Source of the DNA: Acutalibacteraceae bacterium
GTDB taxonomy: Bacteria > Bacillota > Clostridia > Oscillospirales > Acutalibacteraceae
Length of the DNA stretch: 27,062 bases
Assembly (NCBI GenBank): GCA_050946805.1
Contig: JBMNVM010000001.1
Span: 1-27,062 of the forward strand
Reading direction: 5' to 3'
A model generated the notes under the pieces. It saw nothing but the letters and a program-made list of their open reading frames with translations. It did not search any database and was not told where the DNA came from. This document shows positions 8,039 through 26,278 of the stretch, one piece after another (position 1 is the first letter of the stretch; the number at the start of each line of letters is the position of its first letter). The position numbers and the translations under genes are program-made.

Positions 8039-8100
8039 TGATGTATGCTGAATATTGGAAAAGCAAATTATTCGCGCGATAAAGCCGCACAAGTTCACAC

Positions 8101-8126: not shown

Positions 8127-8178
8127 GCATGAATTCAGAAATTATAAGATAAACTTACATAAAGGACGAGAAATTTTT

Positions 8179-9279: not shown

Positions 9280-9345
9280 TTCCCGAATTTCTTTTGGCGG
9301 GAGACCGGCTTAAAGCAAATTAATCTGATAAAGGTCGTGTAGCAG

Positions 9346-10473
9346 TTGGATTTTTTGCACAGAACCTGGGCGGAGATTGATATTAGCGCCCTTATTCACA
9401 ATTTTAAAATCATAAAGGCCGCGGCCGACGGCGCTAAAATAATGGCGGTGGTAAAGGCCAACGCCTATGGCCACAGCGTTGCCGATATTGCCCCCGCGCT
9501 TCAAAGCGAGGGAGCGGATTTTTTTGCCGTTTCAAACATTGAGGAGGCCATGCAGTTAAGGGAAATTGGCATTGTAAAGCCGATTTTAATTCTCGGCTAC
9601 ACCCCTCCCGAAATGGCGCGGGAGCTGGCTTTAAACGACATTTCACAGTGTGTCTATTCTTCCGAATACGCGGCACTTTTATCAAACTTTGCTAAAAAGA
9701 ATAACGTAACAGTTAAAATACATATTAAGCTTGACACCGGAATGTCAAGACTCGGCTTTAACTGCCGAAGCGATGATTTGCCCGAAATTGAAAAGGCGGC
9801 ATATGCCGCGGAGCTTCCCTTTCTTTCGCTTGAGGGCGTTTTCACCCATTTTGCCGTTGCCGACCGAACCGCGAAAAACGAGGACGGTTTTACGGAAAAA
9901 CAGTTTTCACGCTTTTTAGCGGCGTTAAGGTTTTTAAAGGAACGCGGGATAGAGCCTCCAATCAGGCATTGCTGCAACTCTGCCGCGCTGCTAATAGATC
10001 ACGATAAGCACCTTGACCTGTGCCGCCCGGGGATTATTCTTTACGGGCTTAAACCCTCTTATGAGCTTGATTTAAAAGAGGATTTAATTCCCGTAATGAC
10101 ACTAAAATCGGTTGTGTCAATGGTTAAGGAAATCGGCCCTTCGGACACCGTAAGCTACGGCAGAACCTTTAAGTGTGAAAGAAAAATGAGGATTGCGACC
10201 GTTGCCGCCGGATATGCCGACGGGTACCCCCGCCTGCTTTCAAACAAGGGGTATGTCCTGATAAGGGGCAAAAAGGCTCCAATTGTAGGCAACGTCTGCA
10301 TGGATCAGATTACGGTTGACGTAAGCGGCATAGAAGGCGTATCCATGGGGGATGAGGTAATACTGTTCGGCAAGGAGTTGTCGGTTGATATTCTGGCCAA
10401 TCTATGCGGCACCATCAATTATGAAATTGTCTGCGGCATATCCCCCAGAGTGCCGAGAATAATAAAAAAATAA
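9346..10473 (+). CDS. alr: alanine racemase
   Basis: AVVKANAYGH (PLP lysine), HIKLDTGMSRLG, RPGIILYG, GYADGYPR, GNVCMDQ, GTINYEIVC. Confidence 0.96.
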   Translation: MDFLHRTWAEIDISALIHNFKIIKAAADGAKIMAVVKANAYGHSVADIAPALQSEGADFFAVSNIEEAMQLREIGIVKPILILGYTPPEMARELALNDISQCVYSSEYAALLSNFAKKNNVTVKIHIKLDTGMSRLGFNCRSDDLPEIEKAAYAAELPFLSLEGVFTHFAVADRTAKNEDGFTEKQFSRFLAALRFLKERGIEPPIRHCCNSAALLIDHDKHLDLCRPGIILYGLKPSYELDLKEDLIPVMTLKSVVSMVKEIGPSDTVSYGRTFKCERKMRIATVAAGYADGYPRLLSNKGYVLIRGKKAPIVGNVCMDQITVDVSGIEGVSMGDEVILFGKELSVDILANLCGTINYEIVCGISPRVPRIIKK

Positions 10474-10499
10474 CCGCCCTTTGCGTTAAACGCAGCTTT

Positions 10500-10530
10500 T
10501 CCGGCAAAGCATACTTTTGCCGGATTTTTC
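10500..10530 (+). terminator. probable intrinsic terminator after alr
   Basis: TCCGGCAAA ... TTTGCCGGA stem followed by TTTTTC. Confidence 0.55.
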
Positions 10531-10557
10531 ATATTTTAAGGTTTGAGGAGTGTAAAA

Positions 10558-11316
10558 ATGAAGATTGCCGTTGTTACCGGCGCTTCGTCGGGGCTTGGGG
10601 AGCAGTTTGCGCTTAATATTGATAAAACAAGAAAAGATTTAGATGAAATATGGCTTATAGCAAGGCGTGAGGATAGGCTTCGAGACCTTTCCTTGCGGCT
10701 TTCAAAGCCCGCAAGAATATTCCCAATGGATATTACCGATACGCAAATGCTAAAAAGCTACACTGCCGCGCTTGAGGAATTTGGTGTGCAGGTGGAACTT
10801 CTTATTAACAACGCCGGATTTGGAAAACTTAAGCCTTTTGACGAGTTGACGGCAGAGAAAAACTGCGGTATGGTAAGGCTTAACTGTGAAGCGCTTGTAA
10901 ATACGACTTCCAAAACCCTTCCTTTCATGGGAGCAGGCGGGGAGATAATCAATGTTTGCTCGATTGCTTCCTTTGCGCCCACCGCCCGCATGGCGGTTTA
11001 CAGTTCAACAAAGGCCTTTGTTTTAAGCTTTTCAAGGGCATTAAGAGAGGAACTGAAAGTCCGCAAAATCAACGTCTTGGCCGCCTGCCCGGGGCCTATG
11101 GATACGGAGTTTCTGCCGATTGCAGGGATAGCGAAAGGTACCAGCCGCGCCTTTGACACCCTGCCGAAGGTAAGCCCTGAAGTGATGGCGCAAAAGGCGC
11201 TTAAAGCCTCCCGCAAGGGAAGGGCGGTTTACACCAATCGCGTAATTTATAAGCTTTACCGCCTTGTCGCAAAGCTTTTGCCCCACAGTCTGGTTATGAA
11301 GATGGCAAAGACTTAA
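10558..11316 (+). CDS. short-chain dehydrogenase/reductase (SDR)
   Basis: VTGASSGLG, LINNAGFG, YSSTK (YxxxK). ATG 10558 follows a GAGGAG RBS. Confidence 0.92.
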   Translation: MKIAVVTGASSGLGEQFALNIDKTRKDLDEIWLIARREDRLRDLSLRLSKPARIFPMDITDTQMLKSYTAALEEFGVQVELLINNAGFGKLKPFDELTAEKNCGMVRLNCEALVNTTSKTLPFMGAGGEIINVCSIASFAPTARMAVYSSTKAFVLSFSRALREELKVRKINVLAACPGPMDTEFLPIAGIAKGTSRAFDTLPKVSPEVMAQKALKASRKGRAVYTNRVIYKLYRLVAKLLPHSLVMKMAKT

Positions 11317-11353
11317 ATTTTTGTTCGGTTTATGGCGAATCGGCAAAAAATTG

Positions 11354-11382
11354 ATGACATTATTTACCTTTGGTAGTATAAT
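11354..11382 (+). promoter_or_regulatory. sigma-A promoter for the YfhO-like gene
   Basis: ATGACA (11354-11359), 17 bp spacer, TATAAT (11377-11382). Confidence 0.55.
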
Positions 11383-11534
11383 AAGATTATTCCTGTTTTG
11401 CTTGCGTACTTTGCGAAAAAGGCACAAGCTTTTTCAAAACGGCGGCGTCTTGGCGAGTACACTTTATTTGCCGCTGTATTTTCTATAAATTCGCCGTACA
11501 GAGCGAAGATTATCCTTAATAAGGAGTGTTTTAA

Positions 11535-14135
11535 GTGCGAATCAAAAGCCGATATCTGGCTTTTTTGTTTACCGGATTAATCCTCCTTTTCGGCTTTTAT
11601 ATAGGCGGATTGTTCCCGTTTGGAAAAGGTACAATTTCATGGTGCGATATGAACCAGCACGGAATACCCCTGCTTTGCGATTTTAAAGACATACTTGCGG
11701 GCAAGGCGGGTATGTTCCTCAATATGAAAAATGCCTTCGGTATGAATTTTTACGGGGTGTTTTTCTTTTTTCTGTCCTCTCCTTTTTCTTTTGCGGCGGC
11801 ATTTGTGCCTAAGGCCGACATACCTTTTTTGATGAACATTTTAGTCGTGGTAAAGCTTTGCCTTGCGGCCTTTACCGCAGCCCTTTTCTTTGAAAAATAC
11901 GCTTCGAAAATCGGCGTCGGGCTTCAGGCCTTTCTCGGAACCGCTTACGGGCTGTGCGGATACGGTATGCTCTTTTATCAGAACATAATGTGGCTTGACA
12001 TTATGTATCTTTTTCCGGTGCTTATGATAGGCGCCGTTAAGCTTATAAAAGAAGGAAAACCCGCAACCTTTGTGCTGACACTCAGTCTTTGCGTGGTTAT
12101 GAACTATTATATAAGCTTTATGGTCTTTATTTTTGTTATTGTCTTTTTCGGGCTGTACGCGCTTTGGTACAAGACTGCCGACCATACGGTCTTTGTAAAT
12201 CTCGGGATTTGCGGGGTACTCTCCCTTGTGCTTTCGGCGATTGTATGGATACCCTGCTTTCTTCAGTACACCGACTCGGCAAGAACGGCCTCGGTTTTGT
12301 CACAGCTGGCATCAAGCAGCTTTTTTGCCGAAATGCACACCACTTTGTCGATACTGCTTTGCACCGGAATTGTGTTTGCGGTATTGGCGCTGATAATACC
12401 AAGGCTTTCGGTGGCGGACGGCGATACCCGCTTTTTAATGCTTCTGCTGGTCGCGGTAGGTATGCCGCTGGTTATTGAGCCGGTAAACCTTATGTGGCAT
12501 ACCGGCAGCTATATGGCCTTTCCGGCACGTTACGGATTTGTTACCGTTTTTGCAGCGCTTATGCTTGTGGCAAAAGAGCTGTCGGATATTCAGTACTCCG
12601 AAAAATCGGATTATATGATAGTTACCATTCTTTTCTTAATAATTTCTGCTCTTTCGGTGTTTATGATAGGGTTTACAAACAAGAATTCCGAAGTGCTTTC
12701 AACCTATATTAAAACCCTTTGGGGCAATGAGGAATTTTTAAGTAATCTTGCTATTATAACGATTTTTGCCGCCTTGGCCTCGCTGGCGGTTCTTATCTAC
12801 GCCAAGAAAAGGTATTTAAGCCGCGCGGTTGTTACGGTTTTTCTCTGCATAATTTTGGCGGCTCAGGGGCTTTGCTCGGTTCATATTTACATGACCTCGG
12901 CCAAAGGGTCGTTTCATATGTATAATTACCGCACCTTCCTGGATTTAGCCGATATTTTAAATGATGATAAATTTTACCGTGTCAACACCGAGGCAAGGCT
13001 GGCCGACGTAAATATGACCGGTGCTGCCGGCTTTAACAGCATTTCGCATTATACCTCGCTGAATAATCGCTATACCATGGAGGCCGCAAAACAAATGGGT
13101 TACAGCGGCTATTGGATGGAGACGGCCAACTGGGGCGGAAGCCTGTTAAGCGATGCACTTTTAAGCATCGGCTGCACGGTCTACTTGGAAGACGGTAATC
13201 TTTTCATCAATAAAAATCCGCGTTATTTCGGTCTTGGCATTAAAGCGGCAGAGGATGTCCCCAAAGAGCTTTCGGATGTTGACAGATTGATGTCGCTGGA
13301 CTACGCCTTCGGGCGGATAACCGGCAGCGTTTCGTGTGTCAAGCAGTATGCTCCCTCATTTTTTGAGTACTGCGATTATACCGCCGGCAAGGACGGATAT
13401 GAGATTGTAAGCACTATCGAGCAAAATAGCAGTCAGGACAGCGCGATATATTATAATATTTTCGTAAACGGCAAGCAGACCTTGTATTTTGACTGCTATA
13501 ACGGCTTTTCCAACCGCCTTGTCGAGACGATTAACGGCAGTTTTGCCATAAGAGTCAACGGTGAGCTTATATCCTCCTATTATCCGGCGCAGAAAAACAA
13601 CGGGCTTTTGAATCTCGGCAGCTTTGAGGATACGACTGTTACGGTTAAGGTTACGGTACTTAAAGATGTCGAATGTTCCTCATTCGGGCTTTTCGGAGTT
13701 GAGGAGGATGTCTTTGAGGAGGCTTTTAACAAGACCGAAAGCCTTGACCTTAAAACATTAAAAAATACTATTTACGGCCATGTGGAAACGGCCGGCAAGT
13801 ATTTTATAAGTATTCCGTATTCAAAGGATTATAAAATTACCTTAAACGGGCAAAAAATCAACTATACAAGAGCATTGACCGGATTTATTCTTGTTGATGT
13901 TCCGGAAGACGGAGAGCTTAAAATCACAAGAATACCGCAAGGCTTTGTGGCGGGAGCGGTGCTTTCGGTTATCGGTATAGTAATTTTGATTATTTATTTA
14001 AGAAATTCAAACCGAATAGAAAATTTAAGCCGGAACTTTAAAAAGGCGGTTTACGGTATCTTTTTGGGCGTTTTTGCTACCGTTATTTTCGTGGTTTACA
14101 TCTTCTCGATTTTCGTAAACCTTGTGGCCGGATAG
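11535..14135 (+). CDS. YfhO family polytopic membrane protein (GT-C glycosyltransferase-like)
   Basis: 866 aa with many hydrophobic helices; CDMNQ early-loop motif, GYGMLFYQNIMWLD, WHTGSYMAFPARYGF, SIPYSKDYKITLNG near the C-terminus. Family recognised by eye. Confidence 0.8.
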   Translation: MRIKSRYLAFLFTGLILLFGFYIGGLFPFGKGTISWCDMNQHGIPLLCDFKDILAGKAGMFLNMKNAFGMNFYGVFFFFLSSPFSFAAAFVPKADIPFLMNILVVVKLCLAAFTAALFFEKYASKIGVGLQAFLGTAYGLCGYGMLFYQNIMWLDIMYLFPVLMIGAVKLIKEGKPATFVLTLSLCVVMNYYISFMVFIFVIVFFGLYALWYKTADHTVFVNLGICGVLSLVLSAIVWIPCFLQYTDSARTASVLSQLASSSFFAEMHTTLSILLCTGIVFAVLALIIPRLSVADGDTRFLMLLLVAVGMPLVIEPVNLMWHTGSYMAFPARYGFVTVFAALMLVAKELSDIQYSEKSDYMIVTILFLIISALSVFMIGFTNKNSEVLSTYIKTLWGNEEFLSNLAIITIFAALASLAVLIYAKKRYLSRAVVTVFLCIILAAQGLCSVHIYMTSAKGSFHMYNYRTFLDLADILNDDKFYRVNTEARLADVNMTGAAGFNSISHYTSLNNRYTMEAAKQMGYSGYWMETANWGGSLLSDALLSIGCTVYLEDGNLFINKNPRYFGLGIKAAEDVPKELSDVDRLMSLDYAFGRITGSVSCVKQYAPSFFEYCDYTAGKDGYEIVSTIEQNSSQDSAIYYNIFVNGKQTLYFDCYNGFSNRLVETINGSFAIRVNGELISSYYPAQKNNGLLNLGSFEDTTVTVKVTVLKDVECSSFGLFGVEEDVFEEAFNKTESLDLKTLKNTIYGHVETAGKYFISIPYSKDYKITLNGQKINYTRALTGFILVDVPEDGELKITRIPQGFVAGAVLSVIGIVILIIYLRNSNRIENLSRNFKKAVYGIFLGVFATVIFVVYIFSIFVNLVAG

Positions 14136-14237: not shown

Positions 14238-14585
14238 TCAATTTAATTTTCCTTTGGCGGTATTGATTGAGGAGATGAGCAATTTGCGAATGGTTCCGCA
14301 TTGTTTGTAAAGATTCTGCACATTTTCATTGTTAACAATGTCGGCTTCAACAAACAATTTTAGCCAGTATTCTGTTTCGTAACACTCTTTTAAAGCTATT
14401 TGAAATTTTGAAATGAAATCCGCTTTACTCTGGGCGTAATTCGCTTCATGTATGTTAGCGCCTATCGATGTTGCGGAACGCTCCAGTTGGTTTACAATGG
14501 AATAATGCCCCTTGATGGTGTCACATAGTTCTATAGTATTGACCGCAAGCGACATAGACAAATCAATCAGCTTGTTTTCTTTCAT
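14238..14585 (-). CDS. four-helix-bundle protein (23S rRNA IVS protein / Avd-like superfamily)
   Basis: NQLERSATSIGANIHEA, SKADFISKFQIALKECYETEYWL. ATG 14585 follows an AGAGGTGA RBS. Confidence 0.88.
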   Translation of the reverse strand: MKENKLIDLSMSLAVNTIELCDTIKGHYSIVNQLERSATSIGANIHEANYAQSKADFISKFQIALKECYETEYWLKLFVEADIVNNENVQNLYKQCGTIRKLLISSINTAKGKLN

Positions 14586-14648
14586 GCAGATCACCTCTGC
14601 GATTATTTATCATCTTTTATTGGATATTTCTACGGTGGTATGGGCGGT

Positions 14649-14784
14649 ACGAAATAAAATTCGTTTCCACATTTGCGAAGCAAATTTCATACGCCTTGGC
14701 GTATTTCATAGCTTTTGCTATTTCATTCGTTCTAAAGGAACGAATTTCATTGAAAAAAGCAAGTCTTGCGACTTGCTTTTTTCA
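14649..14784. repeat. tandem array of six hairpins with repeated ATTTCAT junctions
   Basis: ATTTCAT at 14684, 14703, 14720 and 14744, each separated by a self-complementary spacer; flanked by further hairpins at 14649-14664 and 14751-14784. Confidence 0.85.
14751..14784 (-). terminator. tRNA-Gly terminator-like hairpin
   Basis: TGAAAAAAGCAAGTC-TTGC-GACTTGCTTTTTTCA; perfect 15-bp stem abutting the tRNA CCA end. Confidence 0.75.
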
Positions 14785-14859
14785 TGGAGCGGGTGATGGG
14801 AATCGAACCCACACGACCAGCTTGGAAGGCTGGGATTCTAGCCATTGAACTACACCCGC
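14785..14859 (-). tRNA. tRNA-Gly (anticodon UCC)
   Basis: GCGGGTG acceptor stem; CCAGC-CTTCCAA-GCTGG anticodon arm; GGTTCGATTCC T arm; encoded CCA; 75 nt. Confidence 0.97.
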
Positions 14860-14979: not shown

Positions 14980-15008
14980 TTGACAAAAACAGGTGATAAT
15001 GCTATACT
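14980..15008 (+). promoter_or_regulatory. sigma-A promoter of the T-box operon
   Basis: TTGACA (14980-14985), 17 bp spacer, TG-extended TATACT (15003-15008). Confidence 0.85.
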
Positions 15009-15024
15009 TTCTAAAAAAATAAAT

Positions 15025-15281
15025 GCGTTGAAGGAAAGCGGGTTTACATCACGACTTTAAGAGAGCCGGCGGCTGGTGCGAGCCGGTAGGGCGGTGTGGA
15101 CTTTATCTCGTTCCGGAGCAGAGCGGCCGAAACTAAAGTAAGCCGCTACGGAATGCCCCGTTATCATGGCAAAAGGCTTGTTAGAGCCTTGCAAAGAGAC
15201 CGTTTTTTAACGGTAATCAGGGTGGTACCGCGAAGTAATTTCGTCCCTGAGACTGCTTTTAGCAGTCTCGGGGCTTTTTTT
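15025..15281 (+). promoter_or_regulatory. T-box riboswitch, probable Leu (CUC) specifier
   Basis: Stem I with AG box AGAGAGCC and GGTGCGA apical loop; specifier loop TTTAT-CTC-G closed by TTCC/GGAA; stem II with GAAA/AGTA; CCGTTA motif; T-box AATCAGGGTGGTACCGCG (15215-15232); antiterminator CAGGG/CCCTG; terminator 15245-15281 with T run. Confidence 0.93.
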
Positions 15282-15326
15282 ATACACAAGCCTTCAATGA
15301 CCGAATTGACGAAAGAGAGTGTTTTT

Positions 15327-16712
15327 ATGAAAATCCAAATTTCCGACAAAACCCTTTGCAGACAGGAAAATTCCTTTAGCTTTAAAGAAAAAATCGAGAT
15401 AGCAAGACAGCTTGAAAAGCTTTGTGTTGACACAATAGAGCTGCCTTCCATACAAAATGTCAAAGCCGATACGCTACTTATTAAAACAATCGCTTCCTTT
15501 GTGAAAAACAGCGTTATTTCGGTCTGCGCCGGCGAAAGTAAGGAAAGCCTTGAAAACGCCTTGACTGCCCTTGCTACCACCGCTCATCCGAGAATCAGGG
15601 TGGAGCTGCCGGTTTCCCCTTTCGGGATGGAGTATATGTTGCATATGAAAGCGCCGCAAATACTCGAAACTGCGGCCGAACTTATAGCGCTTGCAAAAGA
15701 AAAATGCCAAGAGGTTGAGTTTTGCGCCTTTGATGCTGCCCGCGCGGAGGAGGACTTCTTAAAAGAGGCAATCACCGCGGCCGTAAATGCCGGAGCGACG
15801 ATTATCACGGTTTGTGACAGCGCCGCCGAGATGATGCCCGACTCTTTCGGAGAATTTGTTGCCAAAATTAAGGTTCTTGTGCCGGAGAATGTGACGGTCG
15901 GCGTTTGTGCCTGCAACAAAAACGGTTTGGCGGCGGCGAATGCCATAATTGCAATAAAAAACGGTGCGCGGATTATTAAAACCAACGTAGGCGGCGAGGA
16001 AATCGACCTTAAAACGGTTGCCGAAATCTTGCGCAACTGCGGCAGGGCAATCGGTTTTGATTCGGGGGTTAAGTATACCGAAATGCACCGCATTATAAAG
16101 CAGATTAACTGGATTATTTTAAACGCCAAGAACGAAAAATCGGCTGTTACGGTTGTCGAACCCGACCGCAGCGGTATTCACCTTGATTCAAATGACGACA
16201 AGGATGCGGTTGCTGCCGCTGTTTTAAAGCTGGGGTATGACCTAAGTGACGAGGACATCACAAAGGTTTATGAGGAGGTCATGCGTGTAGCGGCGAGCAA
16301 AATGGTAAACGCCAAGGAACTTGATGCCATTGTCGCAAGCGTTGCCTTGCAGGTTCCGCCCACCTATAAGCTTGTAAGCTATGTTATCAACAGCGGCAAC
16401 ATTATTACTGCCTCCGCCCAAATAACCCTTGAAAGGGACGGAGAAAAGCTTCAGGGCATTTGCATAGGCGACGGTCCGGTAGACGCGGCCTTCCTTGCCA
16501 TTGAGCAGATTATCGGCCGCCATTATGAGCTGGACAATTTCCAAATCCAGTCGGTAACCGAGGGTAAAGAGGCTATGGGCTCGGCGGTTGTCAAGCTGCG
16601 CTCGGGCGGAAAGCTCTACTCCGGAACCGGTATTTCGACCGACATTTTGGGCGCAAGTATACGCGCTTTTTTGAGCGCCGTAAACAAAATCGTTTATGAG
16701 GAGGCATTATAA
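15327..16712 (+). CDS. degenerate 2-isopropylmalate synthase homologue with intact C-terminal regulatory domain (probable pseudoenzyme)
   Basis: 461 aa from ATG 15327. Collinear with LeuA (KIEIARQLEKL, PRI..SP..MEY, EF..FDAAR, AGATII, GDGPVDAA, STDILGASIRAFLSAVNK), but DTTLRDGEQ reads DKTLCRQEN, HxH reads CAC, and GERAGN is absent. Confidence 0.85.
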   Translation: MKIQISDKTLCRQENSFSFKEKIEIARQLEKLCVDTIELPSIQNVKADTLLIKTIASFVKNSVISVCAGESKESLENALTALATTAHPRIRVELPVSPFGMEYMLHMKAPQILETAAELIALAKEKCQEVEFCAFDAARAEEDFLKEAITAAVNAGATIITVCDSAAEMMPDSFGEFVAKIKVLVPENVTVGVCACNKNGLAAANAIIAIKNGARIIKTNVGGEEIDLKTVAEILRNCGRAIGFDSGVKYTEMHRIIKQINWIILNAKNEKSAVTVVEPDRSGIHLDSNDDKDAVAAAVLKLGYDLSDEDITKVYEEVMRVAASKMVNAKELDAIVASVALQVPPTYKLVSYVINSGNIITASAQITLERDGEKLQGICIGDGPVDAAFLAIEQIIGRHYELDNFQIQSVTEGKEAMGSAVVKLRSGGKLYSGTGISTDILGASIRAFLSAVNKIVYEEAL

Positions 16713-19219
16713 TGAAATTTTCTTTCATGACCAAGGGCTGGCACTCAATCAGCTTTGATGAATTCTGTAACGTTGCCAAGGAGCTTAAATTTAAAGGTAT
16801 AGAGCTTCATAACATACATAATCCTCTTTTTACCGATAAAGACGGCGCCTTCCATGACTATGCCGCGGCCTCAACCCTTAGAAAGCTTTATGAGATGAAG
16901 CTGGAGCTGCCCTGCATTGACACTATATGTGATATAGCGGTTCAAAACGCGGTTGATGAAAATATTGCGGAAATTACCGCCTGCTTAAATGTTGCCGCAA
17001 ATCTTAAAATACCGTACGTGCGGCTTCACGCTTGCGACACCGTGTATACCGAAGAAAAGAACAAGGCAACAACCGACCTTTTAAAAAAGGTGCTTCCCAT
17101 GGCCGAGGAAAAGGGCGTAACCCTGCTTGTCGAAACCAGCGGGATTTATTGCGATACCGCAAAGCTGCGGGATTTGCTTGACAGCTTTGCCTGCGACAGT
17201 CTGGCGGCTTTATGGGATATGTACTCCCCTTATTTCAATGCCGGCGAACAGCCCGAAGCCACAATTCAAAATCTCGGCGCCTATATAAAGCATGTGCATA
17301 TAAAGGATGCGGTCAGGACAGAAAAGGGTGTCGAATTTTGTCTTATCGGCGAGGGGGAAATGCCGATTATCGAAATGATGCAGGGGCTTCGTTCCCTTAA
17401 TTACGACGGCTTTTTCTCCCTTGAGTGGCACCCCAAATGGTGCGAAGAGCTTGATGACATGGAAATCATCTTCTCACAGTTCATAAACTACATGAAGCAG
17501 TTCGGGGATACCTCCAAGAGTGATAATTCCCTTTACTACAACCGCGATCATACGGGAAGATACGTCTGGGAAAAGGACAGGTTAATAGATGCCACCTTTT
17601 CGCAGGTTTTAGACCGCATGGTGGAGGAGTTTCCCGACCAGTACGCCTTTAAATACACCACCCTTGACTACACAAGGACATACAGCGAGTTCAGGGACGA
17701 TGTTGACCTTTTCGCCCGCTCCCTTATTTCAATGGGGGTAAAGGCGGGAACCCACGTTGCGGTATGGGCTTCCAACGTGCCGCAATGGTTTATTGCCTTT
17801 TGGGCAACCGTTAAAATAGGCGCTGTGCTTGTAACCGTAAATACCGCCTACAAAATTCACGAGGTTGAATACCTTTTAAGGCAGTCGGACACCCATACCC
17901 TTATTATGACCCAGGGCTCGAAGGACTGCAACTACGGTGAAATAATTGCTCAGCTTTGTCCCGAGCTTGAAAATACAAAGCCCGGCACACCGCTTCACAG
18001 CAAGCGGCTGCCCTTCCTTCGAAACGTAATAACCGTAGGATACAAGCAAAAGGGCTGCATGACATGGGCGGATGCCGTCGCCCGCGCTTCGCAGGTGCCG
18101 GTAAGCGAGGTTTACCGCATGGCGGCGTTGGTTGACAAGGATGATGTCTGCAATATGCAGTACACCTCCGGCACGACAGGTTTCCCTAAAGGTGTTATGC
18201 TGACACACTATAATGTTGTGAACAACGGAAAGTACATAGGCGACCATATGGATCTTTCGACCGCCGACCGCATGATGATTCAGGTTCCGATGTTCCACTG
18301 CTTTGGCATGGTGCTTTCCATGACCGCCTGCATGACCCACGGTTCCACCATGTGCCCGCTGCCATACTTTTCGCCCAAGCCGGCGCTGGCCTGTGTCAAC
18401 GCCGAGCGGATTACCGCATTTAACGGCGTGCCCACAATGTTTATTGCCATGATGCAGCATCCGGACTTTAAGAAGACCGATTTTTCACATGTAAGAATAG
18501 GTATTATGGCCGGCTCGAACTGCCCTGCGGAGCTTATGAAAAAGGCCTCAAAAGACATGAATATGCGGGAAATAATATCTGTCTACGGCCAGACCGAGGC
18601 CTCACCGGGCTGCACCATGAGCAGCTATTACGATTCGCTTGAGGTGCGTACCGAAACGGTAGGCTCCGCCTTTGCTCATATCGAATGTAAGATTATTGAC
18701 CCTGAAACCGGCAAGGAGTGTCCCGACGGTGTCAGCGGTGAGTTTGTCGTGCGCGGCTACAATGTAATGAAAGGGTATTATAAAATGCCCTCCGCCACCG
18801 CTTTGGCCATTGACAAGGACGGTTGGCTCCACACAGGCGACCTTGCGACCAGACGGCCGGACGGGAACTTTTGCATAACCGGCAGACTTAAAGACATGAT
18901 AATACGCGGCGGAGAAAACATTTATCCGAAAGAGATAGAGGAGTTTATCTACACCTGCGACAAGGTGCGGGATGTACAGGTTATCGGCGTGCCTGATGAA
19001 AAGTACGGCGAGGAGATAATGGCCTGCATTATATTAAAAGACGGGGAGACCATGACCGCTGATGAAATGAGGTCTTACATAGCTGCCAACCTTGCCCGCC
19101 ACAAGGTTCCAAGGTACATTGAATTTGTTGACAGCTTCCCTATGAACGCCGCAGGTAAAATTTTGAAATACAAAATGCGCGAAGAAGCTGCAGAAAGGTT
19201 GGGACTTTCGAAAAAATAA
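16712..19219 (+). CDS. fusion of an N-terminal xylose-isomerase-like (AP endonuclease 2) TIM barrel and a C-terminal AMP-binding acyl-CoA synthetase
   Basis: N-terminus: KGIELH, LLVETS, HVHIKD, GEGEMP, FSLEWH. C-terminus: QYTSGTTGFPKG, YGQTEASP, GWLHTGDL, GRLKDMIIRGGENIYPKEIE, NAAGKILK. TAATG overlap with the upstream gene. Confidence 0.9.
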   Translation: MKFSFMTKGWHSISFDEFCNVAKELKFKGIELHNIHNPLFTDKDGAFHDYAAASTLRKLYEMKLELPCIDTICDIAVQNAVDENIAEITACLNVAANLKIPYVRLHACDTVYTEEKNKATTDLLKKVLPMAEEKGVTLLVETSGIYCDTAKLRDLLDSFACDSLAALWDMYSPYFNAGEQPEATIQNLGAYIKHVHIKDAVRTEKGVEFCLIGEGEMPIIEMMQGLRSLNYDGFFSLEWHPKWCEELDDMEIIFSQFINYMKQFGDTSKSDNSLYYNRDHTGRYVWEKDRLIDATFSQVLDRMVEEFPDQYAFKYTTLDYTRTYSEFRDDVDLFARSLISMGVKAGTHVAVWASNVPQWFIAFWATVKIGAVLVTVNTAYKIHEVEYLLRQSDTHTLIMTQGSKDCNYGEIIAQLCPELENTKPGTPLHSKRLPFLRNVITVGYKQKGCMTWADAVARASQVPVSEVYRMAALVDKDDVCNMQYTSGTTGFPKGVMLTHYNVVNNGKYIGDHMDLSTADRMMIQVPMFHCFGMVLSMTACMTHGSTMCPLPYFSPKPALACVNAERITAFNGVPTMFIAMMQHPDFKKTDFSHVRIGIMAGSNCPAELMKKASKDMNMREIISVYGQTEASPGCTMSSYYDSLEVRTETVGSAFAHIECKIIDPETGKECPDGVSGEFVVRGYNVMKGYYKMPSATALAIDKDGWLHTGDLATRRPDGNFCITGRLKDMIIRGGENIYPKEIEEFIYTCDKVRDVQVIGVPDEKYGEEIMACIILKDGETMTADEMRSYIAANLARHKVPRYIEFVDSFPMNAAGKILKYKMREEAAERLGLSKK

Positions 19220-19220
19220 A

Positions 19221-20027
19221 ATGGTAAACGGAATTTATGTAATAGATGCACATTGCCATATATACCCCGAAAAGATTGCCGCCAAGGCCGTTGCCGGCAC
19301 CGACAGGTTCTACGGCGGAAAATCGGTGGGTACCGGTACGGTCGGCGATCTTTTGGAAAGGGGAGCCGAGGCCGGCATTGACCGTTTTATCGTTCAGTCG
19401 GTTGCCACAACGCCGAAACAGGTGCGAAGCATTAATGATTTTATCGCATCGCAGGTGTCCGAAAATCCGCAAAGGTTTATAGGCTTTGGCACACTGCACC
19501 CCGACAGCGAGGATATAAACGGGGATGTTGAACACTTAATGGAGCTGGGACTTAAAGGCGTAAAGCTGCACCCCGATATTCAGGCATTTAAAATCGACGA
19601 CTACCGCTGCCTTAAAATCTATGAGATTTGTGAGCAAAAGGGGCTGCCGATTTTAATGCACACCGGTGACTACCGCTTTGATTACTCAAATCCCAACCGC
19701 CTTTTGCCGATTTTGGATATTTATGAGAATTTAACGGTCATAGGGGCGCATTTGGGCGGCTGGTCGGTTTGGGATGAGGCATGCGAAAAATACGCCGGAA
19801 AACCGAAATTTTATGTTGACTGTTCCTCGAGTTTCAGTTATTTGAAACCCGAAAAGGCACTTGAAATTATACGCCGCTACGGCGCCGACAGGGTGCTTTT
19901 CGGCACCGATTACCCGATGTGGTCGCCAAAGGCCGAGCTTGAATATTTTTTGGCTCTCGGTCTTGACGAACACGAAAAAGAGTGTATACTAAATATAAAC
20001 GCCAAGAAGCTTTTAAATTTGGAGTAG
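19221..20027 (+). CDS. amidohydrolase family 2 metal-dependent hydrolase
   Basis: IDAHCHI, GVKLHP, ILMHTG, AHLGG, VLFGTDYP. Confidence 0.88.
   Translation: MVNGIYVIDAHCHIYPEKIAAKAVAGTDRFYGGKSVGTGTVGDLLERGAEAGIDRFIVQSVATTPKQVRSINDFIASQVSENPQRFIGFGTLHPDSEDINGDVEHLMELGLKGVKLHPDIQAFKIDDYRCLKIYEICEQKGLPILMHTGDYRFDYSNPNRLLPILDIYENLTVIGAHLGGWSVWDEACEKYAGKPKFYVDCSSSFSYLKPEKALEIIRRYGADRVLFGTDYPMWSPKAELEYFLALGLDEHEKECILNINAKKLLNLE
19963..19990 (+). promoter_or_regulatory. possible internal sigma-A promoter for metY-metA
   Basis: TTGACG (19963-19968), 16 bp spacer, TATACT (19985-19990), inside the 3' end of the amidohydrolase gene. Confidence 0.45.
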
Positions 20028-20068
20028 TACGGCCTTGACACAGAGAATTAAGATTTGGAGAAATTGTG

Positions 20069-21352
20069 ATGAGTAATTATAATATCGAGACAAAGTGTGT
20101 CCAAAGCGGGTATACTCCGGGCAACGGGGAACCGCGCGAAATTCCGATTATTCAAAGCACAACCTTTAAATATGCCACCTGCGAGGAAATGGGAAAGCTC
20201 TTTGACCTTGAGGCAAGCGGCTATTTTTATACTCGGCTTCAAAATCCTACAAACGATATGGTGGCGGCCAAGATCTGTGATATGGAGGGCGGCGCCGCCG
20301 CAATGCTGACCTCCTCTGGTCAGGCTGCATCCTTTTACTCTGTTTTTAATATAGCCTCCTGCGGCGATCATGTTGTCTGCTCTGCCTCAATTTACGGCGG
20401 AACATATAACCTTTTTGCCGTTACCATGAAAAGAATGGGGGTTGAATTTACCTTTGTTTCCCCCGACTGCTCGGAGGAAGAGCTTAACGCGGCATTCCGC
20501 GAAAACACAAAGGCGGTTTTCGGGGAAACCATAGCCAACCCGTCTTTGGTTGTTCTTGATATTGAAAAGTTCGCAAAAGCGGCTCACAGCCACGGGGTAC
20601 CGCTTATTATTGACAATACCTTTGCCACACCGGTCAACTGCCGCCCCTTTGAATGGGGAGCCGACATTGTAACCCATTCCACCACAAAGTATATGGACGG
20701 TCATGGCGCCGCCGTGGGCGGATGCATTGTCGATTCAGGCAAATTTGACTGGAGCAAATATCCGGATAAATTCCCGGGACTTTGTACTCCGGATGAAAGC
20801 TATCACGGCGTTATATATACCAAGCGCTTCGGAATAGAGGGCGCGTATATCACAAAGGCAACCGTTCAGCTTATGCGTGATTTAGGCTCCATTCAGGCGC
20901 CACAAAACGCCTTTTTACTTAATTTGGGGCTTGAAAGCCTGCATGTAAGAATGAAGCGCCACTGCGAAAATGCCCTTGCCGTTGCCGAGTATTTGGAGTC
21001 GGACGACAGGATTTCATGGGTCAACTACCCGGGGCTTAAAAGCAGTAAATACTATGAACTGGCCAAAAAGTATATGCCGAACGGCACTTGCGGCGTTGTA
21101 AGCTTTGGAATAAAGGGCGGAAGAGCCGCTGCCGAACGGTTCATGAAAAATTTAAAGCTTGCGGCCATTGAAACCCATGTTGCGGACGCGCGCACCTGCT
21201 GTCTGCATCCGGCAAGCACGACCCACCGCCAGATGAATGACGATGAACTCAAGGCCTGCGGAATCACGCCCGACCTTGTCCGTTTCTCCTGCGGAATTGA
21301 AAACTCAGGGGACTTGATTGAGGATATAAAGCAGGCTTTGGATAACATATAA
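20069..21352 (+). CDS. metY: O-acetylhomoserine sulfhydrylase (aminocarboxypropyltransferase)
   Basis: YTRLQNPT, TSSGQAA, ETIANP, DNTFATP, HSTTKYMDGHG (PLP lysine), HPASTTHRQ. ATG 20069, or GTG 20066. Confidence 0.88.
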   Translation: MSNYNIETKCVQSGYTPGNGEPREIPIIQSTTFKYATCEEMGKLFDLEASGYFYTRLQNPTNDMVAAKICDMEGGAAAMLTSSGQAASFYSVFNIASCGDHVVCSASIYGGTYNLFAVTMKRMGVEFTFVSPDCSEEELNAAFRENTKAVFGETIANPSLVVLDIEKFAKAAHSHGVPLIIDNTFATPVNCRPFEWGADIVTHSTTKYMDGHGAAVGGCIVDSGKFDWSKYPDKFPGLCTPDESYHGVIYTKRFGIEGAYITKATVQLMRDLGSIQAPQNAFLLNLGLESLHVRMKRHCENALAVAEYLESDDRISWVNYPGLKSSKYYELAKKYMPNGTCGVVSFGIKGGRAAAERFMKNLKLAAIETHVADARTCCLHPASTTHRQMNDDELKACGITPDLVRFSCGIENSGDLIEDIKQALDNI

Positions 21353-21376: not shown

Positions 21377-22300
21377 ATGCCTATTAAAATACCAAACGAT
21401 TTACCTGCCGTAAAAATTTTGAATGAAGAAAATATCTTTGTTATGACCGAAACAAGGGCCATAACGCAGGATATTCGTCCGCTTAAAATTCTGGTGCTTA
21501 ATTTAATGCCCAAGAAGATTGAGACCGAAACCCAGCTTTCAAGGCTTCTGGGAAACACTCCCTTGCAGGTGGATCTTGAGTTAATTCATACAAAAAGCCA
21601 TAAGTCCAAAAACACCTCGGCGGAGCATCTTATCGCCTTTTACAAAACCTTTGACGATATAAAGGATCGCGCCTTTGACGGGATGATTATCACCGGCGCG
21701 CCTGTCGAGCAGATGGAGTTTGAAGAGGTTGAGTACTGGAAAGAGCTTTGTGAAATAATGGAATGGACCAAAACCCACGTTCACAGCACCTTCCATATAT
21801 GCTGGGGGGCGCAGGCGGGGCTTTATTACCATTACGGAATAAAGAAATATCCGCTTGATAAAAAGCTTTTCGGCGTTTTCCCGCACAAGGTGGATTATAA
21901 AAAGTCCATACTTTTCCGCGGGTTTGACGATGTGTTCATGGTTCCCCAGTCCCGCCATACCACCGTATCGAGCGAGGATATAAAGCAGGTTAAAGAGCTG
22001 CGTATCTTATCAAGCTCTGACGAGTGCGGGGTTTACGCCATATCCACAAAGAACGGCAAGCAGATTTTCATAACCGGCCATTCGGAATATGACCGCGATA
22101 CGCTGGCCAACGAGTATTTCAGGGACTTAAACGAAGGCCGACCGATTGAAATTCCGAAAAACTATTTCCCGGGCGACGACCCCAAAAACACGCCGGTCGT
22201 AACATGGCGTTCGCACGCCAATCTGCTTTTCTCTAACTGGCTTAACTACTTTGTTTACCAGACAACTCCTTACGATATCGAAAAGATAAAAAAGGATTAA
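21377..22300 (+). CDS. metA: homoserine O-acyltransferase MetA, acetyl-CoA type
   Basis: [30 protein letters not shown] (E111), HICWGAQ (C142), [21 protein letters not shown]. Confidence 0.96.
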
Positions 22301-22386: not shown

Positions 22387-22423
22387 AAAAACCCGGAAAG
22401 ACCTGAATCTTTCCGGGATTTTT
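22387..22423. terminator. bidirectional terminator between metA and rubredoxin
   Basis: AAAAA-CCCGGAAAGA-CCTGAA-TCTTTCCGGG-ATTTTT. Confidence 0.75.
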
Positions 22424-22857: not shown

Positions 22858-23592
22858 TTAAATTTTCTTTAATTTTGCAAACGGCTTTTCAAGTGCACTA
22901 TAGAGTGCTACTCCGCCGATAACCGCGATACCCGCGTTTATAAGGGTCGAACCCTGCGCCAAAACCGCCGCAGCCGTAGCCGCCGACACGCTGGAGCCGG
23001 CAAGGCTGAACTGAACGATTTTCCACAGCGTTTCGCCGATTATATTTACCATCATGCCGCAGGAGGCTGCCACAATGGCGGATGCGGTTTTTTGCGGGAA
23101 TTTATTTTTAAGCAGTGCAAAGAAGAAGCAGATAAGCCCCACAACAATAAACAAGGGGCAAAGAACCACAGTTTTACCCTCATACCCGCTTTTTGCGGCG
23201 GGGATTGCAAGCGCGGCGGCAATAAGAATTGATACAGCGCCGGAAATCCAAAGTGCGGTTGCAGGATAGCTTTTGCGATTTTTAAAGAGGGTGAAAACCG
23301 CGCCTACCGTAATACCGATTAGGAATTTCAGCAAAAAGGTTTTTGGAGCCGAGTCGGCATGGCCGTTTAAAATATCAAAAAGTCCCATTCCGACAGAACC
23401 GGCAAGCCCGCCCTGCCATCCGCCGACAAGCAGTGCCGCCACAACGACTATCAGGTTGCCGAAATGTATGTACATTTGCGCAAAGGGAAAGAAGAAAACC
23501 GTCAAGGCGATATAGCACAGTGCAGCGAAAAGCGCAATAAATGTTAAATCAAGCAATTTTTGACGGGGTGTTTTTTTAATCTTTTCTGACAT
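22858..23592 (-). CDS. ECF transporter S component, probably vitamin B6 related
   Basis: IALFAAL, YIHFGNLIVVVAALLVGGWQGGLAGSVGMGLFDIL, APKTFLLK. Substrate is inferred from the divergent MocR/PdxR regulator. Start set at ATG 23592. Confidence 0.8.
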   Translation of the reverse strand: MSEKIKKTPRQKLLDLTFIALFAALCYIALTVFFFPFAQMYIHFGNLIVVVAALLVGGWQGGLAGSVGMGLFDILNGHADSAPKTFLLKFLIGITVGAVFTLFKNRKSYPATALWISGAVSILIAAALAIPAAKSGYEGKTVVLCPLFIVVGLICFFFALLKNKFPQKTASAIVAASCGMMVNIIGETLWKIVQFSLAGSSVSAATAAAVLAQGSTLINAGIAVIGGVALYSALEKPFAKLKKI

Positions 23593-23644
23593 AATATCAC
23601 TTCCCACTATTGATTTTTTGATTGATTGATAGTATTATACTAAT

Positions 23645-23696
23645 AAAGTGTCCGCTTTAAAATAGCCAATTTCATCTTTTTTTGAAAGGACAGTTT
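23645..23696. promoter_or_regulatory. candidate MocR/PdxR operator with three related boxes
   Basis: AAAGTGTCC (23645-23653, +); TAGCCAATTT (23663-23672, = AAATTGGCTA on -); GGACAGTTT (23688-23696, = AAACTGTCC on -). A minus-strand TATAAT at 23639-23634 has a poor -35. Confidence 0.5.
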
Positions 23697-23700
23697 TGCT

Positions 23701-25059
23701 ATGCTGCTTGATTTTGCCGATCTTTCACTTGCCAACAAGGGGGAAATTTATCTTACCCTTTACGAACAGATTAAAAAAGCAATCAAAACAAAGGCCATAA
23801 AGCCGGGGGAAAAACTTCCCTCGGTCAGGGAGGCTGCGGCCGAGCTTGGGGTCAGCCGCACGACCATTGAAAACGCCTATACACGCCTTTGCATTGAAGG
23901 GTTTGCCGAAAGCATACCTCAAAAGGGGTATTTTATTATTGCCCCTGTCGGCAGAAAGTACACGCCGGCGGCGGAGAAAACTGCCAAAGAGCCAAAAATA
24001 ATCTACGATTTTTCAAGCCGCAGGGTTGATGAAAAGGCTTCGGATACGAATTTATGGAAAAAGACGGTAAGGTCGGTTTTGTGGGATTCGGGCGAGCTTA
24101 TTTCCTACGGCGACCCGCAGGGCGAGCCGGGGCTTCGGGCGGCTTTAGCGGATTATTCCTTTAAAGCAAGGGGTGTCTCCGCAAGGGCGGAGAATATTTT
24201 AATAGGCGCTGGCGCGGGACCGCTGCTTAACATATTGTGCGGGCTTATCGGCAGGAATGTTACCGTGGGTCTTGAAAACGGCGGTTTTTTCGAAGCTGAA
24301 AGAATTTTTTCGGATTACGGAATAAAAACCCTTCCGCTTAAATACGATAAGGACGGAGCCACAATAGATAGCTTAAAAACCCTTGACCCCGACATACTGT
24401 TTATGATGCCTTCATTACTGCCCAAAATCAGCCCGACCACCCTTTCCAAGCGGCGAAACAGTATCCGCAAATGGGTGGAGGAGAAAGAAAACCGCCTGAT
24501 TATAGAGGACGACTACAACGGCGAGCTTCGCTACACCGCCCGAAGCGTTCCGGCATTTCAGCAGCGCTGCCCCCAAAAAACGGTATATATCGGCAGCTTT
24601 TCAAAGCTTTTGCTGCCAAGTGTACGAATAGCTTATATGGTATTACCCGACTTTTTGATTTCCCGCTTTAGGGAGTTTTCCCACTGTTATAACCAGACCT
24701 GCGGCAAAATCGAGCAATTGGCGCTTGAGAAATACATTTCCTCCGGCAGCCTTGAAAAGCACCTTAAGAAACTTAGAAGACTTTATTACAACAAAAGTCA
24801 AATTCTAATTAGGGAGCTTGAGGATAATCTGCGAGTTTTCAAGGCGGCAAGGCTGTATGAATCCTCACTTACGGTCGAGCTTGAAACGACCCTTGACATG
24901 GGCAGCTGCCAAATCTGTCAAGCGGCGCTTGAGTATGGCATCAACCTTTTGGAGGCCAAACAAAAGGGATGTGTGCGGCTTTGCTTTGCGGGAATAGCGG
25001 AGGAGGAAATTGCGGGAGCGGTAAAATACCTCGACACAGTTTTTGGAAAAATAAAATAA
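23701..25059 (+). CDS. MocR/PdxR family GntR regulator with PLP-dependent aminotransferase-like domain
   Basis: EKLPSVREAAAELGVSRTTIENAY winged HTH; YGDPQGEPGLR, IIEDDYNGE, GSFSK (PLP lysine). Confidence 0.93.
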   Translation: MLLDFADLSLANKGEIYLTLYEQIKKAIKTKAIKPGEKLPSVREAAAELGVSRTTIENAYTRLCIEGFAESIPQKGYFIIAPVGRKYTPAAEKTAKEPKIIYDFSSRRVDEKASDTNLWKKTVRSVLWDSGELISYGDPQGEPGLRAALADYSFKARGVSARAENILIGAGAGPLLNILCGLIGRNVTVGLENGGFFEAERIFSDYGIKTLPLKYDKDGATIDSLKTLDPDILFMMPSLLPKISPTTLSKRRNSIRKWVEEKENRLIIEDDYNGELRYTARSVPAFQQRCPQKTVYIGSFSKLLLPSVRIAYMVLPDFLISRFREFSHCYNQTCGKIEQLALEKYISSGSLEKHLKKLRRLYYNKSQILIRELEDNLRVFKAARLYESSLTVELETTLDMGSCQICQAALEYGINLLEAKQKGCVRLCFAGIAEEEIAGAVKYLDTVFGKIK

Positions 25060-25063
25060 TGTG

Positions 25064-25092
25064 TTGAAAATTGTCGGTTTATATAATATACT
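25064..25092 (+). promoter_or_regulatory. sigma-A promoter for the DUF3048 gene
   Basis: TTGAAA (25064-25069), 17 bp spacer, TATACT (25087-25092). Confidence 0.55.
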
Positions 25093-25135
25093 GTCTTGTG
25101 TGGTTAAATTTCTTATAATTCTTTGGAGGCTTTAA

Positions 25136-26167
25136 ATGTTCAAAAAAATTTTTGCCTTGTGCTTGTGTGTGTGCCTTTTTTCTCTTGCCGGTTGCACCAA
25201 AAAAACCGAAAGCTTGAGTATATCAACGGGGGATGAAAGCTCCACAATACAAAAACAAGAGGTTGTCTATAAAAATCCGCTTACCGGACTTGGCGGAATT
25301 GATAAAGAGGCTTACGAATCACGTCCGGTCGCGATAATGATTAACAATATATCGACGGCTCAGCCTGTGCAGACAGGACTTACGCAGGCCGACATTGTAT
25401 ATGAAACAGAGGTTGAGGGCGGAATTACAAGGCTTCTTGCGGTTTATCAGAATATCAAGGATGTTGAGCAGATTGGCACTGTCAGATCCGCAAGATATGC
25501 ATTTATCGATATGGCCTTAGGGCATAACGCAATTTATGTACATCACGGCGCGGACGAGGATTATGCCGGACAGCATTTGAGAAGCACCGACCATTTTGAG
25601 GTTGATGTAGGTAACGGCGGCGCCAGAATTTCCAACGGTCTTGCAAAGGAGCATACTCTTTATGCTTACGGCGACAAGATTTGGGAGAAAATACTTTCCT
25701 CAAAGCGCACGATTGCCTACCCAAATCCGACCCCGTGGCAGACATTCGCAAGCGAGGATAGCCCCGTAAGCCTTGAATACACAGCGACAAGCGTTACGGT
25801 TCCGTTTTCTCCGTCATACAAAACCACTTTTAAGTATGACTCGGTAACCGGCAGATATACAAGGTATTTCAACAACACAGAGCGCAAGGATTACATAACA
25901 AAGCAGTCAATTACCTTCAAAAACGTGTTTGTGCTTGAAACTACCATTACAAATTATTCGGACCATTACCACCGCAAGGTCGCCCTTGATTCGGGTGAAG
26001 GGTACTACTTTGTAAACGGCACCTACACCAAAATAAAATGGAGCAAGGGTGCCGCATCAAACGGGTTTACCTTCACAAACTTGGACGGCACACCGCTTAC
26101 CGTAAACCCCGGAAATTCATGGGTGTGTATTGCAAACAAATCGACCTCCAGTCCGATTATAGCATAA
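25136..26167 (+). CDS. DUF3048 domain lipoprotein (YerB-like)
   Basis: Signal peptide with LAGC lipobox; RPVAIMINN, QTGLTQADIVYETEVEGGITRL, VRSAR, HHGA. Confidence 0.85.
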   Translation: MFKKIFALCLCVCLFSLAGCTKKTESLSISTGDESSTIQKQEVVYKNPLTGLGGIDKEAYESRPVAIMINNISTAQPVQTGLTQADIVYETEVEGGITRLLAVYQNIKDVEQIGTVRSARYAFIDMALGHNAIYVHHGADEDYAGQHLRSTDHFEVDVGNGGARISNGLAKEHTLYAYGDKIWEKILSSKRTIAYPNPTPWQTFASEDSPVSLEYTATSVTVPFSPSYKTTFKYDSVTGRYTRYFNNTERKDYITKQSITFKNVFVLETTITNYSDHYHRKVALDSGEGYYFVNGTYTKIKWSKGAASNGFTFTNLDGTPLTVNPGNSWVCIANKSTSSPIIA

Positions 26168-26171
26168 AGAA

Positions 26172-26209
26172 AAAAGAGACTTGAACTGTGGACTGTTCAA
26201 GTCTCTTTT
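26172..26209. terminator. bidirectional terminator
   Basis: AAAAGAGACTTGAAC-8 nt loop-GTTCAAGTCTCTTTT; perfect 15-bp stem between convergent genes. Confidence 0.85.
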
Positions 26210-26278
26210 GTTTTTTGTATTAGGATATTCTGCTATTACACGTGGGAGATGGAGCCGAGCGGCAGAAAATATACAGGC

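Follow-up and report, generated by a model that had tools for sequence, protein, structure and literature searches.

A leucine-class T-box operon with a LeuA-like pseudoenzyme and a TIM-barrel::acyl-CoA-ligase fusion: a candidate leucine arm of branched short-chain acid salvage in Oscillospirales

What is the function of an operon that is switched by a leucine-class T-box but contains no enzyme of the leucine pathway? This question is raised by a 27,062-nucleotide stretch of an Acutalibacteraceae bacterium (GenBank assembly GCA_050946805.1, contig JBMNVM010000001.1, forward strand, positions 1 to 27,062; hereafter the window), in which a promoter and a T-box leader precede three tightly coupled genes that encode a LeuA-like protein, a fusion of a triosephosphate isomerase (TIM) barrel with an acyl-CoA ligase, and an amidohydrolase (Table 1). 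A sequence-only reading of the window had proposed that these genes form a leucine-sensing system for the salvage of branched-chain acids. We have followed up this proposal by computational analysis of the locus, of its own genome and of related genomes. The results lead us to consider it probable that the operon is the leucine arm of a route that converts branched short-chain acids into branched-chain amino acids in a gut or bioreactor anaerobe. The fusion has relatives in at least 599 species-level genomes, of which almost every one is from an uncultured organism, and the counts of gene context given below cover the closest 80 loci, all from uncultured gut or rumen Oscillospirales.

The leader and the three coupled genes

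The leader of the operon is a Leu-class T-box with every structural part present. It matches RF00230 over the full length of the model (positions 1-219) with 129.7 bits against a gathering score of 93 (E = 7e-29). The specifier triplet is CUC (15107-15109), a leucine codon, which is followed by a purine (G, 15110) and by the closing helix UUCC. The T-box sequence AGGGUGGUACCGCG is found at 15219-15232, and its bulge, UGGU, matches the discriminator A (A73) of tRNA-Leu, the cognate tRNA-Leu(GAG) being encoded on contig C26 of the same genome. The antiterminator (15217-15250, with a 7-nt bulge) and the intrinsic terminator are mutually exclusive because both of them use the same CCCUGA. The roughly 50 readable orthologous leaders have the specifier CUC with variable flanking bases, the exception being that of locus L089, which seems to have CUG, also a leucine codon. 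We also considered a methionine or an isoleucine specifier, since metY and metA lie downstream and an AUC overlaps the loop in the window, and ruled both out because CUC plus the purine is the sole triplet conserved over these leaders.

Translation of the LeuA-like gene starts at ATG 15327, which is preceded by a GAGAG ribosome-binding site, the listed GTG start at 15096 falling within the leader. This gene overlaps that of the fusion by TAATG at 16710-16714, and a single base (19220) separates the fusion gene from the amidohydrolase gene. The LeuA-like protein consists of a decayed HMGL-like barrel of the DRE-TIM type and a C-terminal LeuA_dimer domain (PF08502, 109 bits, profile positions 2-130 of 131), and all NCBIfam LeuA models score it below their cut-offs, the best with 272.8 bits against 532. 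It has the barrel, the accessory subdomains and the LeuA_dimer domain in the same order as LeuA enzymes of solved structure (PDB 3rmj, 3ewb, 1sr9/3fig), but it differs from them at the catalytic sites. The RDGEQ motif is changed to CRQEN with an additional deletion of four residues, by which the Arg and the metal-ligand Asp are replaced; HCHND is changed to ACNKN, so that A-C-N stands in place of HxH; and the GERAGN loop has been lost. Among 70 orthologues the metal-ligand Asp is kept in only three and both His residues in none, and these positions are unconserved within the family. The regulatory domain, in contrast, is the best conserved part of the protein, with a mean top-residue frequency of 0.785 against 0.587 for the barrel. 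Its motifs GDGPxDAxF, ELxD(F/Y)xI and STDI are common to the true LeuA of the same genome, to which the identity amounts to 32% in the barrel, 21% in the accessory subdomains and 37% in the LeuA_dimer domain. It has been reported that the regulatory domain of real LeuA binds leucine (PMC9860122). As judged from these sequence features, the LeuA-like protein is a pseudoenzyme that retains the domain by which real LeuA binds leucine.

The 835-residue fusion begins with a xylose-isomerase-like TIM barrel (residues 1-265), which is joined by a linker to an AMP-forming acyl-CoA ligase (residues 300-835). The ligase half matches PF00501 with 316 bits and PF13193 with 64 bits, its best family being PRK12583-like (673 bits), and the adenylation motif YTSGTTGFPKG and the long stretches that follow it do not vary among 37 sequences. 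The ligase domain has a mean top-residue frequency of 0.835, with 47% of the columns at least 95% conserved, against 0.587 for the TIM half, which evolves as fast as the barrel of the dead LeuA (0.587 each). The TIM half matches PF01261 (82 bits, gathering score 31), and its predicted model has a pLDDT (predicted local distance difference test) of 90. Fold searches with this domain returned general family neighbours only, namely SCO6571, the isomerase Art22 and the dehydratase AsbF, with template-modelling (TM) scores of 0.75-0.78. Art22 was also its sequence match in the PDB (E = 2.5e-8), and no specific function was named by PDB sequence searches with the TIM domain, the ligase or the amidohydrolase. 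The metal tetrad E141-D169-H196-E238 is intact in the TIM domain of the window, and the corresponding Glu-Asp-His-Glu site is intact in only 43 of 79 orthologues; many members of the family seem to carry the domain as a structural or regulatory appendage.

The third protein belongs to Amidohydro_2 (PF04909, 122 bits), and its metal and catalytic residues H11, H13, H147, H177 and D230 (HxH, H, H, D) are invariant in 35 of 35 orthologues. The predicted model (pLDDT 97) superimposes on 3irs with a TM score of 0.84, and the nearest neighbours are the uncharacterised BB4693 and the decarboxylase/hydratase/hydrolase branch of the superfamily. On the strength of these residues, the amidohydrolase is predicted to be an active enzyme.

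The sequence-only reading is borne out in its description of the unit: a near-consensus sigma-A promoter (14980-15008, 11 of 12 consensus positions matched); a complete T-box, now confirmed by the full-length family match, the specifier, the bulge and the terminator; three coupled genes with an overlap and a one-base gap at exactly the positions it gave; the lack of any leuB, leuC, leuD or ilv gene in the unit; and a LeuA that is dead in the sense that its catalytic motifs are replaced or deleted. Leucine-specific control by the T-box is likewise supported by the conservation of the CUC specifier in about 50 species. A search for sequencing runs that contain this stretch returned runs of DNA and none of RNA.

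Gene context in relatives and in the own genome

The LeuA-like gene lies directly 5' of the fusion gene in all 78 loci for which upstream DNA is available (the other two of the 80 have none), and a T-box lies directly 5' of the LeuA-like gene in about 53 of the 68 loci with enough upstream DNA. The same gene context is retained even around distant fusions, whose TIM halves share 32-35% identity with that of the window. By comparison, about 50 of the 80 loci have an amidohydrolase gene after the fusion, and those of L105 and L108 are not part of the T-box unit. Since it is present in only about 60% of the loci, we regard the amidohydrolase as an accessory of the core pair. G009, a complete genome, has a Leu (CUC) T-box (locus L111, 8723-9047, minus strand) directly 5' of a fusion gene without any LeuA-like gene, and this fusion has a canonical TIM metal site (WDxHH, HxKD, SLEW). 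The LeuA-like partner is nearly universal but not obligatory. The arrangement in G009 suggests that the link between the Leu T-box and the ligase predates the partnership with the pseudoenzyme, and it may represent the ancestral state of the cassette.

What surrounds this core points to a metabolic route. Subunits of a 2-oxoacid:ferredoxin oxidoreductase (OFOR) and/or IlvE are encoded within 7 kb of the fusion in 41 of the 80 loci; when only the 34 loci whose flanks are complete are counted, the number is 20. The recurrent block (41/80 loci) adjoins the unit on the same strand and consists of genes for a ligase with helix-turn-helix (HTH), cupin and AMP-binding domains, a ParA-like P-loop protein, the alpha, beta and gamma subunits of the OFOR and a class IV aminotransferase. 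T-boxes ahead of these neighbouring HTH-cupin ligases have AUC (Ile) or GUA (Val) as their specifier. In L051, the genes for the ParA-like protein, the three OFOR subunits, IlvE, the LeuA-like protein, the fusion and the amidohydrolase all follow a single Leu T-box in this order. The own genome has such a cluster on contig C46 (Table 1), in which the VorB-type alpha subunit scores 543 bits against a cut-off of 399 and IlvE 499 bits against 307. Both ligases of this cluster have the HTH, cupin and ligase architecture, and their best family is MbcS.

Two side observations concern the proteins of this block. The fusion of HTH and cupin domains to an adenylating enzyme on C46 recalls the enzyme-repressors of the BirA type. 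The ParA/CbiA-like P-loop protein, of about 222 residues, is encoded immediately 5' of the OFOR genes in 33 of the 80 loci (for example L028, 936-1604, and the own C46, 5290-5961); from a weak similarity of the NUBPL type, it might take part in the delivery of iron-sulfur clusters.

The own genome also has a complete operon for de novo synthesis, T-box(Leu CUC)-ilvBNCD-leuA-cimA-leuCDB, on contig C38, so that a salvage route would here supplement de novo synthesis. Many relatives differ in this respect. We sampled 301 genomes of the order, among which related genomes are not independent, so the counts are descriptive. The orthologous fusion is present in 82 of them, and leuB scores over its cut-off in 30 of these 82 carriers but not in the other 52; none of the 27 closest carriers has the gene, against about 133 of the 218 genomes that lack the fusion. 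In five carriers whose genomes are 97-100% complete, nothing reaches the cut-off for LeuA, and two of the five (G086 and G013) have the whole salvage cluster in one locus. These near-complete genomes indicate that the pseudoenzyme needs no real LeuA; it persists where leuA or leuB is absent. For many carriers the source of leucine is probably salvage or uptake, and in many relatives salvage appears to be the only route to it.

For the functional claims of the sequence-only reading, the comparison gives a more mixed outcome. The proposed link to the activation and reductive carboxylation of branched-chain acids gains support from the VorB-type OFOR, the IlvE and the MbcS-like ligases with Ile and Val T-boxes in relatives and on C46. 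The neighbourhood survey by which it was to be checked shows the fusion together with a degenerate LeuA, with Leu T-boxes and with OFOR and/or IlvE genes at the frequencies given above. Conservation of the gene trio holds for the LeuA-like gene and the fusion gene with their T-box, which form the conserved core, but not for the amidohydrolase gene. The absence of leu genes from the unit does not mean that de novo synthesis is absent from the own genome, with its full set of ilv and leu genes, although many relatives are without leuA and leuB.

The metY-metA genes and the flanking DNA

Downstream of the amidohydrolase gene, metY and metA follow on the strand of the operon, with gaps of 38 nt before metY and 24 nt before metA. 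No terminator was found between that of the leader and the one at 22392-22417, hence none before metY; the coupling of the three genes stands, but the unit probably extends into metY-metA rather than ending as the three-gene operon of the earlier reading. The 3' end of the amidohydrolase gene contains a promoter-like site that is kept in all six loci bearing metY-metA, which are close kin, and in none of 43 other amidohydrolase genes. This pattern suggests that the site is the metY-metA promoter, and metY-metA is probably a second transcription unit that can also take read-through from the T-box operon. The five-gene order, with an overlap of the amidohydrolase and metY genes, is found in L010 and four other relatives and is absent from 76 of the 80 related loci. 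Such a restricted occurrence indicates that metY-metA is a lineage-specific addition. This metA is the only copy found in the assembly; there is no SAM (S-adenosylmethionine) riboswitch ahead of it, the one SAM riboswitch of the assembly being on contig C60. The possibility that the trio itself is related to methionine was ruled out, because metY-metA is next to it in only four of the 80 related loci (plus the window and L010) and the internal promoter-like site is specific to these loci. As a separate observation, on the metagenome contig L023 (161-4825) the genes downstream of a distant fusion, P0328 (TIM half 32% identical), are those for a lone 2-oxoacid dehydrogenase acyltransferase domain protein and for a homoserine O-acyltransferase (HTS), so that a fusion and a metA-type gene have come to be neighbours a second time, independently.

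The flanks of the window contain no gene visibly linked to the operon, either upstream (1-14135; dnaE, whiA, rapZ, murB, a ROK kinase, hprK, ychF, alr, a short-chain dehydrogenase/reductase and a YfhO membrane protein) or downstream (22858-26998; an energy-coupling factor S component, a GntR-aminotransferase regulator of the MocR type, a DUF3048 protein and a radical SAM activase). Between the upstream flank and the operon lie a tRNA gene, a Gut-1 RNA match directly after it and, next after that, the gene for a 23S rRNA intervening-sequence protein.

Table 1. Features of the operon and its surroundings (positions in the window, except the last row)
Feature	Position	Strand	Details
23S rRNA intervening-sequence protein gene	14238-14594		PF05635
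Gut-1 RNA	14679-14752	-	RF01706, 51 bits vs gathering score 50
tRNA-Gly(UCC)	14785-14859	-	
Sigma-A type promoter	14980..15008	+	TTGACA-17 nt-TATACT, TG extension; consensus matched at 11/12
T-box leader, Leu class	15019..15251	+	RF00230, covariance-model match
Intrinsic terminator of the T-box	15245..15273	+	13-bp stem and U-run, -24 kcal/mol, z = -7.5
LeuA-like pseudoenzyme gene	15327..16712	+	461 aa; HMGL-like + LeuA_dimer
TIM-barrel::acyl-CoA-ligase fusion gene	16712..19219	+	835 aa; AP_endonuc_2 + AMP-binding + AMP-binding_C
Amidohydrolase gene	19221..20027	+	268 aa; Amidohydro_2
Promoter-like site, candidate metY-metA promoter	19963..19990	+	TTGACG-16-TATACT, inside the 3' end of the amidohydrolase gene
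metY, O-acetylhomoserine sulfhydrylase	20066..21352	+	TIGR01326, 580 bits vs cut-off 495
metA, homoserine O-acetyltransferase	21377..22300	+	NF047918, 517 bits vs cut-off 460
Intrinsic terminator	22392..22417	+	first past the leader terminator; closes the extended unit
Salvage cluster on own contig C46 (locus L112)	46-9612 of C46		T-box(Ile AUC), ligase, T-box(Val GUA), ligase, ParA-like, ferredoxin delta (67 aa), VorB-type alpha, beta, gamma, IlvE

The proposed route from isovalerate to leucine and the competing explanations

How would such an operon supply leucine? From the sequence of the leader and its family membership, uncharged tRNA-Leu(GAG) would stabilise the antiterminator and allow transcription to enter the operon. 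The ligase domain of the fusion would then convert isovalerate, ATP and CoA to isovaleryl-CoA, the VOR-type OFOR of contig C46 would reductively carboxylate this ester to 4-methyl-2-oxopentanoate, and the IlvE of the same contig would aminate the product to leucine, the latter two steps being proposed from the gene order in relatives and from the established physiology of the rumen. The LeuA-like protein, unable to condense acetyl-CoA, would add feedback at the protein level. Because its regulatory domain is preserved and it accompanies the fusion almost everywhere, the most likely role for it is that of a leucine-binding regulatory partner of the ligase.

Several known systems resemble parts of this scheme. 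The carboxylation of isovalerate and subsequent amination to leucine in rumen microbes are established and have been known since the 1960s (PMC7356843 and work cited there). The chemistry that we predict from the genes, from the acid through the acyl-CoA, VOR and IlvE, is the same as that by which rumen and gut anaerobes make Leu, Ile and Val from isovalerate, 2-methylbutyrate and isobutyrate through reductive carboxylation (PMC7356843). However, the physiological work defined fluxes, not genes, and neither the regulation by three T-boxes nor a pseudo-LeuA partner was part of it. Purified MbcS of Staphylococcus aureus activates 2-methylbutyrate and isobutyrate but isovalerate only poorly (PMC10026030), which fits the Ile and Val T-boxes of the MbcS-like ligases on C46 and a separate type of ligase for leucine. 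MbcS, the C46 HTH-cupin ligases and the fusion are all AMP-forming short-chain acyl-CoA ligases with an exogenous branched acid as their expected substrate, and the fusion and the C46 ligases presumably belong to one salvage system. The ligase of the fusion nevertheless shares only about 26% identity with the MbcS type, is PRK12583-like, and has a TIM appendage in place of HTH and cupin and a Leu instead of an Ile or Val T-box. Considering the Leu T-box, the synteny with VOR and IlvE genes and the poor use of isovalerate by MbcS, we infer that the fusion is a candidate isovalerate-CoA ligase. The unit as a whole resembles the T-box leucine supply operons of Bacillota, such as that on C38, in its RNA family, CUC specifier, terminator/antiterminator logic and signal, uncharged tRNA-Leu. 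It differs from them in that a pseudo-LeuA, a fused ligase and an amidohydrolase take the place of leucine-pathway enzymes.

A bolder form of this proposal is that the dead LeuA is a portable leucine sensor, recruited for the allosteric control of a non-homologous, TIM-fused isovalerate-CoA ligase. Leucine would then govern the route twice, through tRNA charging and through the pseudoenzyme, and the cassette would be the sole leucine route in many gut and rumen Oscillospirales without leuA or leuB, which would explain their isoacid requirement. We put this form forward tentatively, as a possibility that at present falls short of being probable.

Some findings weigh against the salvage of isovalerate. 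The nearest families of the ligase are generic, PRK12583 being below its cut-off and the matches in the PDB being feruloyl- and malonyl-CoA synthetases. The own genome has a complete de novo leucine pathway under its own Leu T-box, and its OFOR and IlvE genes lie on another contig behind Ile and Val T-boxes, so leucine limitation alone would not obviously induce them. A predicted complex between the LeuA-like protein and residues 1-290 of the fusion, which comprise the TIM domain, was computed from 37-row alignments and scored 0.01 against a mark of 0.32, a value that speaks neither for nor against binding. Finally, the intact TIM metal tetrad of the window and the strictly conserved amidohydrolase are left unexplained, and the real substrate could be other than free isovalerate.

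This last point leads to an alternative in which leucine is made from another precursor, with the TIM domain (an isomerase/epimerase/dehydratase fold) and the amidohydrolase (a decarboxylase/hydratase/lactonase fold) either making the acid for the ligase or processing its CoA ester. Such a role would account for the full metal tetrad in the window and for the catalytic residues of an amidohydrolase whose gene is coupled in translation to that of the fusion. The ligases for Ile and Val, for their part, do without TIM or amidohydrolase partners. There is also a precedent in petrobactin synthesis, where AsbF makes an acid that is then activated by an AMP ligase. Like AsbF and AsbC, the fusion pairs a TIM-barrel enzyme with an adenylating enzyme, and among reviewed proteins it is AsbF that comes closest to the TIM domain in fold (TM 0.78). 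The identity to AsbF, however, is only 20%, and carrier protein and siderophore genes are lacking. Moreover, the tetrad is broken in nearly half of the orthologues (36/79) despite the same gene context, the amidohydrolase is missing from about 40% of the loci and lies outside the T-box unit in two others, and no neighbouring gene points to a candidate precursor. We therefore regard a precursor other than free isovalerate as unlikely, though it is the alternative to which we give the most weight. The acyl-CoA could also prime the synthesis of branched-chain fatty acids for membrane lipids, as activation of exogenous branched acids by MbcS is documented to do in Staphylococcus aureus (PMC10026030). 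Yet a T-box that senses tRNA-Leu and the recurrent linkage to VOR and IlvE both point to amino-acid supply, which sets the proposed role of the fusion apart from that of MbcS, and there are no fab genes in the neighbourhood; this explanation seems to us very improbable. Hardly any weight is left for the idea that the dead LeuA is a decoy or modulator of genuine LeuA, for instance through heterodimers that relieve leucine feedback, with the ligase as a mere passenger. LeuA enzymes do form domain-swapped dimers, in which the regulatory domains pair with each other (PMC9860122), and the own genome does have a true LeuA. The LeuA-like gene, however, is kept in the five near-complete carriers without LeuA, most of the closest carriers have no leuB, and its constant partner is the fusion, not LeuA. 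We have rejected the decoy on the ground that the gene persists in carriers without any LeuA.

Salvage of isovalerate to leucine thus remains the reading that we prefer. In full-text searches that covered few of the subscription journals, we found neither a description of this cassette nor a study in which the activating enzymes of rumen or gut anaerobes, or the regulation of these enzymes, are assigned. The chemistry and the RNA switch are of known kinds, while the gene set, above all the pairing of a pseudo-LeuA with a TIM-fused ligase, is one for which no description was found. The cassette gives specific gene candidates for the leucine arm of the isoacid pathway. The LeuA-like protein may be a clear case of an allosteric domain that is reused as a sensor for a different enzyme. 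Because many carriers are without leuA or leuB, the cassette could also predict which gut and rumen bacteria depend on isoacids, which bears on the use of isoacid feed supplements for ruminants.

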